A DNA stretch of 64,000 nucleotides from Candidatus Woesearchaeota archaeon. Lineage in GTDB: Archaea; Nanobdellota; Nanobdellia; SCGC-AAA011-G17; PNOQ01. Positions 25,461 to 26,477 of this stretch are shown one piece after another. The notes beneath the pieces were generated by a model that was given only the letters and a program-made list of their open reading frames with translations, was not told the DNA's origin and did no database searches. The stretch covers positions 56,768 through 120,767 of the forward strand of contig CAYFOF010000002.1 in the NCBI GenBank assembly GCA_964344655.1. The letters run 5' to 3'. Every line of letters begins with the position of its first letter. The stretch's first letter is position 1. A program made the translations under genes and the position numbers.

Positions 25461-26477
25461 TTATCTAACTATATAAACTAAAGTTCCTTCTTTTACTTCA
25501 TCAAATACTTCAACAACCTCTTTATTTCTCATCAAAACACACCCCTCAGAACAAGGTCCTGTCTCTTTTTCAACAGTTCCTTCCCTACTAACTGCATGAA
25601 CATAAATAAACCTTTCCCACGAATTATCATTCATTTCTTCCAACCCATCTAATCGTAATATTCTAGTTGTTATAGATCTCAATCCCCAACGTTCTTTAGA
25701 TATTTCAGCAATTTTCCCAGTAAACTGTCTTGCTTTAAATATTCCCCCCAATGGAACTCCTTCTCCAATTTTTTCTCTTATAACATGCAATCCCAAAGGA
25801 GTTTTTCCAGACCCAATTACATTCCCAAATCCAGATTTTCCAGTTGAAGTATCATAAACATCCTTTAAAATAAAATTCTCATCAACTATTGAAAACAAAT
25901 AAAGATCTTGTGATTCACCATGAACAACTATAGCATTATCTGGATCAATCTCTATTTTACTAGTGGGATTATTAATTTCATTCAAAATTGATTCTTGTGC
26001 TTCTAAAAGAACTTCTTCAGGAATCGCTTCTAATCTAGGATCTTCTTCATCCATTCCTGTAGGATCAATAAAATTCATTGGATTATTATTAACATATACA
26101 TAAGGTAAATTATCTTTAACAGGATCTACTGAGGTGAATCTTCCAATATTTGGATCGTAATATCTAGCATTAAAATAATATAAATCTTCATCTAATTCTT
26201 TTCCAGTAAAAGAAAATCTTTCACCAACTTTCAACGATTGTCCAAAGGGCAAAGATTTAGAATTAATATCTGAACCTAAACGATTTTGATAATGATATTT
26301 TATATTTTCATTATTTTTTGTTGCAATTAATCTATTTCCTACGTAAAAATAAGTAGTTTCACTCTCCCCAACAGCTTTCTCAGCAGTCTCAAAAGTTTCT
26401 AGAATATCAACATCTTTAGCAATAACAACATTACTAAATAAAATAAGTAAAATTACAAATATCACCATACTTTTCAT
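25461..26477 (-). CDS. secreted RHS/YD-core protein with C-terminal L,D-transpeptidase (YkuD)-like domain; polymorphic-toxin-like
   Basis: Signal peptide. YD-repeat-like NRLIATKNNENIKYHYQNRLGSDI. RHS core terminus ARYYDPNIGRFTSVDP...YVNNNPMNFIDPTGMDE. C-terminal YVHAVSREG...GPCSEGCVLMRNKEV resembles the YkuD catalytic His...Cys motif. Confidence 0.6.
   Translation of the reverse strand: MKSMVIFVILLILFSNVVIAKDVDILETFETAEKAVGESETTYFYVGNRLIATKNNENIKYHYQNRLGSDINSKSLPFGQSLKVGERFSFTGKELDEDLYYFNARYYDPNIGRFTSVDPVKDNLPYVYVNNNPMNFIDPTGMDEEDPRLEAIPEEVLLEAQESILNEINNPTSKIEIDPDNAIVVHGESQDLYLFSIVDENFILKDVYDTSTGKSGFGNVIGSGKTPLGLHVIREKIGEGVPLGGIFKARQFTGKIAEISKERWGLRSITTRILRLDGLEEMNDNSWERFIYVHAVSREGTVEKETGPCSEGCVLMRNKEVVEVFDEVKEGTLVYIVR
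26130..26355. repeat. inverted copy of the RHS-core coding segment (paired with 49925-50150)
   Basis: The reverse complement of 26266-26355 is roughly 88% identical by eye to 49921-50010. The YYDP region is also similar. Confidence 0.6.

Follow-up and report, generated by a model that had tools for sequence, protein, structure and literature searches.

A gene on the minus strand of a 64,000-nucleotide stretch of contig CAYFOF010000002.1, assigned to a Candidatus Woesearchaeota archaeon (the window, which throughout means this whole stretch), encodes a 338-residue protein that joins a hydrophobic N-terminus and a short RHS-type core to a C-terminal domain with the YkuD fold. With moderate confidence, we read this protein as a small secreted, self-releasing effector with which a DPANN-type archaeon would edit the peptidoglycan of bacteria. 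Archaeal attack on bacteria is only now being documented, and peptidoglycan-specific enzymes are its cleanest genomic sign, as the producer lacks the substrate. The gene joins the L,D-peptidase fold to the scaffold of a polymorphic toxin, and it does so in a DPANN-like lineage with few known partners. Coordinates of the features are collected in Table 1.

A YkuD-fold domain of the ElsL-like clade

The translated open reading frame (ORF) ends in ...FIYVHAVSREGTVEKETGPCSEGCVLMRNKEVVEVFDEVKEGTLVYIVR, identical to the peptide quoted in an earlier note on this DNA, which had proposed that the C-terminal domain is a YkuD-type L,D-transpeptidase. The assignment to YkuD is borne out across the whole length of the profile. 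PF03734 (YkuD) matches residues 182-336 (25470-25934) at 43.7 bits against a gathering threshold of 23.4 (E 5.2e-11), covering profile positions 3-146 of 146, and PF13645 (YkuD_2) matches at 32.3 bits (gathering threshold 27). When the family profile was searched against the PDB, B. subtilis YkuD was matched at E 3.6e-15; in a single-sequence PDB search the YkuD matches were marginal (E ~0.8). The span given in the note (25461-25900) does lie inside the gene, where it encodes residues ~193-338, but the domain is larger (25464-26051).

The predicted structure agrees with the profiles. An AlphaFold2 (AF2) model of the domain, built on 120 relatives, reached a predicted local distance difference test score (pLDDT) of 89.4 and a predicted TM-score (pTM) of 0.87. 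At E ≤ 1e-3 Foldseek found 72 PDB matches; each of the 50 listed has the YkuD/L,D-transpeptidase fold: 49 by PDB title, and 4xxt, whose title names an amidase/peptidase/peptidoglycan-binding fusion, by our own judgement. The listed matches include Bdellovibrio Bd1075, B. subtilis YkuD, DpaA, Csd6, Pgp2, LdtMt1/2 and Ldtfm. We take Bd1075, Csd6 and Pgp2 to be L,D-carboxypeptidases; for Csd6 this is also stated in the Tlde1a paper (PMC9638812). The earlier note had named two outcomes that would refute its assignment, a failed YkuD profile match and a predicted structure lacking the beta-sandwich with a His/Cys dyad, and neither occurred: the profile matches along its length, the model resembles solved YkuD-fold enzymes, His, Ser and Cys are conserved, and in the sequence alignment the Cys falls on Cys138 of ElsL. 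The domain has the YkuD fold, and the match is far beyond chance.

The subfamily is a different matter from the fold. The best NCBIfam model for the domain is the ElsL L,D-carboxypeptidase (NF040925), at 88.7 bits (E 3.4e-25), well below its cut-off of 270. The same model was best for all 10 near relatives scanned, at 134-158 bits and over the full model length, whereas an Acinetobacter baumannii protein reached by tblastn is a genuine ElsL at 328 bits. Because the window domain scores below both its relatives and genuine ElsL, it is, judged by these profile scores, not an ElsL equivalog; it is a member of a wider ElsL-like L,D-carboxypeptidase clade, distinct from the classical cross-linking transpeptidases. 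The window protein and A. baumannii ElsL are 41% identical (pairwise E 4e-28), with Cys313 aligned to the catalytic Cys138. In a 5.8-billion-protein database the best single-sequence matches reached E 7e-34, and an exhaustive homologue search counted ~1,055 clusters at E ≤ 1e-30. The sequence relatives of the domain, among those found, are only single-domain bacterial proteins of 150-270 residues with 38-50% identity.

ElsL, the closest characterised sequence relative of the domain, cleaves disaccharide tetrapeptides to tripeptides and spares pentapeptides, and its C138S variant is inactive (PMC8649774). For the window domain we predict that it uses its Cys to cut the L,D bond of peptidoglycan stems or to transfer groups there. 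ElsL is a leaderless, stand-alone bacterial housekeeping enzyme of the cytoplasm, with a role in wall recycling. The window domain, by contrast, is archaeal and follows a secretion signal and an RHS core; two residues past the catalytic Cys (C+2) it has Leu where the family has Arg.

So, is the active site intact? We aligned 267 family members to the family hidden Markov model and tabulated 38 positions. All 15 of the invariant positions checked are kept in the window protein (Q190, S211, G216, T226, P227, H231, G238, R272, L276, R289, H294, S310, G312, C313 and N318). His294 is followed by 15 intervening residues and then by S310-E-G-C313, which fits the pattern His-x(14-17)-[ST]-x-Gly-Cys, and the His, Ser, Gly and Cys of this pattern occur in 267 of the 267 members. 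The earlier note had named as a hallmark an invariant His followed by S/T-x-GC-[IV]-R/M; His294, S310, G312 and C313 conform to it, but its final "R/M" masks a Leu in place of a near-invariant Arg. The conserved Gly-Thr pair past the catalytic His and the Arg (or Asn) at C+2 are absent, since the window protein reads H-A-V and C-V-L-M at these places. Ala295 stands where the family has Gly (266/267), Val296 where it has Thr (264/267) and Leu315 where it has Arg (259/267); Glu311 replaces a less strictly kept His (186/267). The H-A-V triplet is peculiar to the window protein among the 267 members.

Leu at C+2 recurs in just two other members, both bacterial, so on its own it is not disqualifying. 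One of the two, P0003 (bacterial contig JBEPYC010000055.1, L004 6001-7900), is a leaderless ElsL-like protein encoded directly upstream of a 441-residue Mur-ligase gene, which we read as a wall-recycling context. This pairing suggests that the Leu variant is functional.

These residues bear on an alternative in which the domain is a captured bacterial cassette, catalytically impaired or decaying on a toxin scaffold and perhaps retained only for binding. We consider this improbable, and it stays in contention mainly because of the changed near-invariant residues, the H-A-V triplet included. G295A, T296V and R315L fall beside the catalytic His and Cys at positions that are 97-99.6% conserved in the 267 relatives, and H311E departs from the majority as well. 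The fusion also occurs once, with no orthologous C-terminal domain found and nearest relatives only ~50% identical. Against decay speak the 15 intact positions, His294, Ser310, Gly312, Cys313 and Asn318 among them, the open reading frame, the high-confidence fold model, the occurrence of Leu at C+2 in a bacterial member with a wall-recycling gene context, and a base composition that is fully host-like and suggests long residence under constraint. LdtMt2 has H-S-A and C-L-N at the altered positions, so such changes are tolerated within the superfamily.

An RHS toxin scaffold in an archaeal genome

Upstream of the YkuD-fold domain, a linker of 20 residues separates the hydrophobic N-terminus from the RHS core. 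TIGR03696 (RHS-associated core) matches residues 77-142 (26052-26249) at 70.7 bits, against a cut-off of 32.5. A first DP motif, SVDPV (D118), lies ahead of the boundary motif, whose Asp138 is the predicted autoproteolytic aspartate. The description of the protein as RHS-core with a DPxG boundary thus stands as far as the TIGR03696 core and DPTGM are concerned, but the RHS sequence amounts to only ~100 residues and there is no cocoon: the YD-repeat shell of ~1,000 residues is missing from the window protein. Confidence in the AF2 model of the RHS fragment is low (pTM 0.35); in the PDB it resembles Rhs/teneurin shells alone, and those weakly (E 0.009-0.19). A hydrophobic N-terminus directly before the core is also found in the metagenome proteins P0269-P0277 and in the homologue at L002. 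The recurrence of this layout marks the short signal-plus-core form as a design in its own right, not the product of truncation.

A precedent for the boundary comes from cocoon-forming Rhs toxins such as Photorhabdus Rhs1, where the C-terminal plug is an aspartyl protease domain with a pair of DPxGL motifs, the second of which supplies the Asp required for toxin release (PMC8636562). With the Rhs1/TcC plug the window protein has in common an RHS-associated core, a pair of DP motifs and, immediately ahead of the toxin, a PxxxxDPxG[LM] boundary. Rhs1 in addition encloses its toxin in a YD-repeat barrel of ~1,000 residues and possesses an N-terminal plug and a type VI secretion system (T6SS) adaptor, all of which the window protein is without. 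Since the window protein lacks the barrel, encapsulation is impossible.

A second gene of this kind, which we call paralogue B, lies elsewhere in the window. The two proteins are 70% identical by tblastn, across residues 35-146 of the window toxin only, and paralogue B matches TIGR03696 at 68.8 bits. In windows of 15 residues up to DPxG, amino acid identity is 53-93% and nucleotide identity 62-96%; right past DPxG the values are only 0-27% (mostly ≤ 13%) for amino acids and about 30% for nucleotides. The ~195-residue tip of paralogue B has no Pfam match. Homology of the window toxin to the bacterial YkuD family begins at residue 143, directly past the DPTGM boundary, which is the pattern expected from cassette swapping at the DPxG junction. 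The stalk of paralogue B carries 17 NxS/T sequons in ~115 residues and is likely to be heavily N-glycosylated.

A genome scan with the RHS-core alignment recovered two loci, both in the metagenome-assembled genome (MAG) JAIOSD01 of an unclassified "archaeon"; the source genome itself was not among the matches. Of the two homologues, one has a PT-TG pre-toxin domain (PF14449, 28.7 bits; threshold 23.5). The second shares synteny with paralogue B, including the adjacent TrmB-like regulator gene, but ends in a different tip. A further partial protein (L007 7206-7534), from the Candidatus Woesearchaeota MAG GCA_018693795.1, has an N-terminus 77% identical to that of the toxin (BLASTP); it adjoins an ELP3-like gene, a different genomic context, and the contig end interrupts it before the tip. 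A metagenome scan with narrow patterns gave one partial match; its C-terminal sequence and that of the adjacent ORF led us to judge it bacterial. The homologue search with the RHS core listed only proteins below ~185 residues, mostly fragments, so that its view of tip diversity is narrow.

Because the core is shared, the sequences diverge completely past DPxG and one homologue has PT-TG, the window protein is a member of a polymorphic-toxin family. The RHS-core family seems to move around the genome. Convergently downstream of paralogue B lies a 144-residue ORF (50836-51270, minus strand) with a membrane-anchor or lipobox-like N-terminus. At the same place JAIOSD01 has a different 200-residue ORF, alike only at the N-terminus, and there the toxin tip differs too. 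We regard paralogue B and the 144-residue ORF as a candidate toxin-immunity pair.

The toxin gene is native to an archaeal genome. Its guanine plus cytosine (GC) content is 30.2%, compared with 31.3% for the window, and an independently assembled ENA metagenome contig (L001) has this protein too, with its gene order preserved. The flanking genes confirm the archaeal host that had been supposed: RNA polymerase B'', B', A' and A'', aEF-2, aEF-1α and an archaeal/eukaryotic-type uS10, with glmS on the opposite side. Scored against archaeal equivalog or subfamily models, the polymerase, elongation-factor and uS10 genes pass the curated cut-off, with the exception of A'' (408 bits against 421). We rejected contamination or mis-binning, given archaeal core genes on both sides on one contig, native GC and repetition in an independent assembly. 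The most similar named N-terminal relative belongs to a Candidatus Woesearchaeota MAG, and from the names of relatives only we place the organism among the DPANN-type archaea, as a relation of Woesearchaeota.

Table 1. Location and character of the toxin gene, its parts, its neighbours and its relatives (window positions unless a locus handle is given)
Feature	Position	Strand	Description
Toxin gene, 338 aa + stop	25461..26477	minus	From ORF list and translation; in order, signal peptide, linker of 20 residues, RHS core and C-terminal domain of YkuD fold
Sec-type signal peptide or membrane anchor, aa 1-20	26418..26477	minus	MKSMVIFVILLILFSNVVIA/KD; read by eye from the translated sequence
RHS core remnant, aa 41-142	26052..26357	minus	TTYFY...IDPTGM; a few YD-type hairpins and the RHS-associated core
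Boundary motif, aa 133-142	26052..26081	minus	PMNFIDPTGM; PxxxxDPxG[LM] type, directly before the toxin module
C-terminal toxin module, aa 143-338	25464..26051	minus	Leading helix and YkuD-fold ElsL-like catalytic domain
Catalytic His294 codon	25596..25598	minus	V-H-A-V, family consensus I-H-G-T; His in 267/267
Active-site motif S310-E-G-C313-V-L-M-R-N318	25524..25550	minus	Family consensus S-H-G-C-I-R-M-x-N; Cys313 codon 25539-25541
Upstream ORF, 131 aa	26512..26907	minus	One predicted transmembrane helix, weak FG-GAP-like calcium-binding motif; 34 bp from toxin gene
Upstream ORF, 109 aa	26949..27278	minus	Cys-rich, four-Cys zinc-ribbon-like; same direction as toxin gene
Paralogue B, 434 aa	49535..50839	plus	Signal peptide, NxS/T-rich stalk, same RHS core, DPDG boundary, unrelated C-terminal domain
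Short RHS-core protein of JAIOSD01	L002 3326-4369	plus	
Short RHS-core protein of JAIOSD01	L003 3599-4933	plus	

Proposed activity, precedents and alternatives

How might such a protein work? Export would proceed through the Sec-type signal, as read from the translation. The plug would then cleave itself past DPxG at IDPTGM, where the motif is present and cleavage is argued from Rhs1 and TcC, and this would free a module of ~196 residues. The freed module is, by the fold, family and catalytic residues described above, an ElsL-like YkuD-fold cysteine peptidase. By analogy with ElsL and Tlde1, Cys313 would attack the L,D bond between residue 3 (meso-diaminopimelic acid or L-Lys) and D-Ala4 of tetrapeptide stems. 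Stems would be trimmed to tripeptides, possibly with other D-amino acids swapped in, and bacteria would be left, as with Tlde1, with fewer usable stems for cross-linking and a disturbed wall homeostasis.

If the producer is an archaeon without murein, the substrate must be bacterial. No immunity gene lies 3' of the toxin gene, where the convergent uS10 ends 2 bp from its stop codon, and the neighbouring ORFs gave zero matches to immunity families in Pfam and NCBIfam. A murein-free producer would need no protection from a murein-specific enzyme, which fits the missing immunity gene, and that absence in turn fits a bacterial substrate.

The scheme has precedents. Zhang et al. 2012 (PMC3482391) reported Tox-LD-peptidase tips (H, S, C) of RHS polymorphic toxins, with a bacterial distribution only and linked to Imm16/Imm57, and the domain is predicted there to attack peptidoglycan stem peptides. 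In both cases an L,D-peptidase occupies the extreme C-terminus of an RHS-type toxin, and the logic of RHS core, DPxG boundary and swappable tip is the same, a likeness that we draw by description. The Tox-LD-peptidase toxins differ in having a bacterial host, full RHS repeats, delivery by the type II secretion system, the T6SS or TcdB-TcaC, and immunity genes (PMC3482391), whereas the window protein is archaeal, has ~100 RHS residues, is exported apparently by Sec alone and has no Imm16/Imm57 downstream.

Tlde1 (Salmonella Tlde1a, PMC9638812) is a YkuD-fold T6SS effector that is toxic through L,D-carboxypeptidase activity and D-amino-acid exchange on tetrapeptide stems. Like the window protein it has the YkuD fold, in its case put to antibacterial use, and its motif is H-x(14-17)-[ST]-H-G-C-h (PMC9638812). 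No sequence link to Tlde1a was detectable, as 7UMA, 7UO3 and 7UO8 are absent both from the PDB profile matches at E ≤ 0.01 and from the 50 Foldseek matches listed. Tlde1 relies on the T6SS for delivery and has Tldi1 as its immunity partner; near the window gene there is neither a T6SS nor an immunity gene.

Archaeal enzymes with a comparable purpose are also on record. Strock et al. 2025 (PMC12352652) reported archaeal peptidoglycan hydrolases that kill bacteria, with Nanoarchaeota/DPANN as the most prominent carriers. In Woesearchaeota, MAGs that encode lytic transglycosylases and pore-forming toxins have been interpreted as belonging to predators of bacteria (PMC9723730). As with the window protein, these are secreted enzymes for bacterial peptidoglycan in murein-free archaea, interpreted as antibacterial weapons. 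The published enzymes are modular, with a catalytic domain (M23, GH23) and a wall-binding domain (PMC12352652, PMC9723730), and the window protein has no wall-binding domain. The words YkuD, transpeptidase and RHS do not occur in the Strock text (PMC12352652), and because the filter of that survey required a wall-binding domain, the window protein would be missed by it. The gene therefore adds a peptidoglycan-editing class, that of the L,D-carboxypeptidase/transpeptidase fold, which is outside the reach of the published archaeal wall-hydrolase survey. The earlier note had called a peptidoglycan-directed YkuD effector in an archaeon unusual; with RHS L,D-peptidase toxins (PMC3482391) and archaeal wall enzymes (PMC12352652, PMC9723730) both known, it is less so. 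We describe the window protein as an archaeal, cocoon-less and immunity-less variant of a known toxin type, with a tip from the ElsL-like clade.

Several points weigh against an effector aimed at bacteria. The substitutions G295A, T296V and R315L beside the catalytic residues may have altered or abolished activity or specificity. Without a cocoon, the folding and self-cleavage of a lone plug fragment are only putative, in keeping with the low pTM of its model. The combination is also solitary. We checked 268 proteins for the RHS core, namely the 267 YkuD-like members (the window protein included) and paralogue B; within the YkuD-like family only the window protein has it, and none of the 266 other members retrieved does. 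The 150 family members listed are the best of the ~1,055 clusters, and RHS-YkuD fusions from other bacterial subfamilies may rank lower. Genome, metagenome and protein searches likewise found no orthologue with the same C-terminal domain. The protein carries no domain that would bind peptidoglycan, and no known path would take it through the outer membrane of Gram-negative bacteria. The natural substrates of ElsL are soluble cytoplasmic muropeptides, and trimming of D-Ala4 alone is not lytic. Finally, the absence of murein in the producer is presumed from its archaeal identity, with only part of the genome in view.

Some of the same evidence would suit a gentler relationship, in which an episymbiotic DPANN cell remodels, loosens or covalently engages the wall of a bacterial partner, or harvests wall peptides or D-Ala from it, without killing. 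We think this unlikely, though it draws on the same domain evidence as the antibacterial effector and accommodates the point that an L,D-carboxypeptidase is not lytic on its own. YkuD-fold enzymes also attach proteins to peptidoglycan and detach them, DpaA is among the structural matches, and relatives of the domain are named "lipoprotein-anchoring transpeptidase ErfK/SrfK". DPANN archaea are, moreover, widely considered host-dependent (PMC9723730). The polymorphic-toxin scaffold, the swapped tips and the PT-TG domain in a homologue point instead to conflict and not to metabolism, and the lineage has no known bacterial host.

Could the target be something other than peptidoglycan? The YkuD fold might have been repurposed after transfer, with proteins or peptides on the surface of rival archaea or in the producer's own envelope, for instance, as its substrate. 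The surroundings of the active site are altered, paralogue B and the homologues resemble toxins of a general kind, and polymorphic toxins are classically aimed at close relatives (PMC3482391). A toxin against kin, however, needs an immunity gene, and none is present 3' of the window gene. We know of no characterised YkuD-fold enzyme that acts on anything but peptidoglycan stems, and of the explanations considered we find this the least probable. Pseudomurein peptides consist of L-amino acids only, hence contain no L,D bond. We considered pseudomurein, which lacks D-amino acids, unlikely as a target on this ground.

Returning to an effector against bacteria, its wider form is a claim that we advance tentatively, as a real possibility but short of an expectation: that a genome-reduced DPANN archaeon uses a peptidoglycan-specific enzyme on bacteria through a new minimal format of Sec signal, bare self-cleaving RHS plug and toxin, dispensing with cocoon, injection machine and, as the producer lacks the target, immunity gene. 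If true, the gene would show directly, at the genetic level, that polymorphic toxins serve such archaea in fighting bacteria or preying on them, and it would imply that an RHS plug is able to act as a stand-alone release module. Should the enzyme be active, bacteria would be indicated as the targets or the hosts of these archaea, and a very small self-contained toxin-release module would be on offer for study. Knowledge of the enzyme family itself is unchanged by the finding.

Neighbouring genes and other features of the window

Two small ORFs lie upstream of the toxin gene (Table 1), and both adjoin it in the independent contig L001 too. The 131-residue ORF has sub-threshold Pfam matches only and none in NCBIfam, and the 109-residue ORF has no significant Pfam or NCBIfam match. 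They are possible operon partners of the toxin gene, and either may have an immunity role, which the Pfam and NCBIfam scans neither support nor exclude.

Elsewhere in the window, an Rfam tRNA match at 9696-9815 (plus strand) spans 120 nt, much above normal tRNA length, so this tRNA gene probably contains an intron. Three further tRNA matches follow at 9969-10103. Two runs of ORFs on the minus strand (59878-63223 and 39399-42309) have hydrophobic N-termini and are Cys/Gly-rich, for example in GGDGCTECGDG and CGECTEWEEIGCGEG. Except for one fn3 domain (41275-42309), these ORFs have no Pfam match, and they may represent a family of surface proteins.

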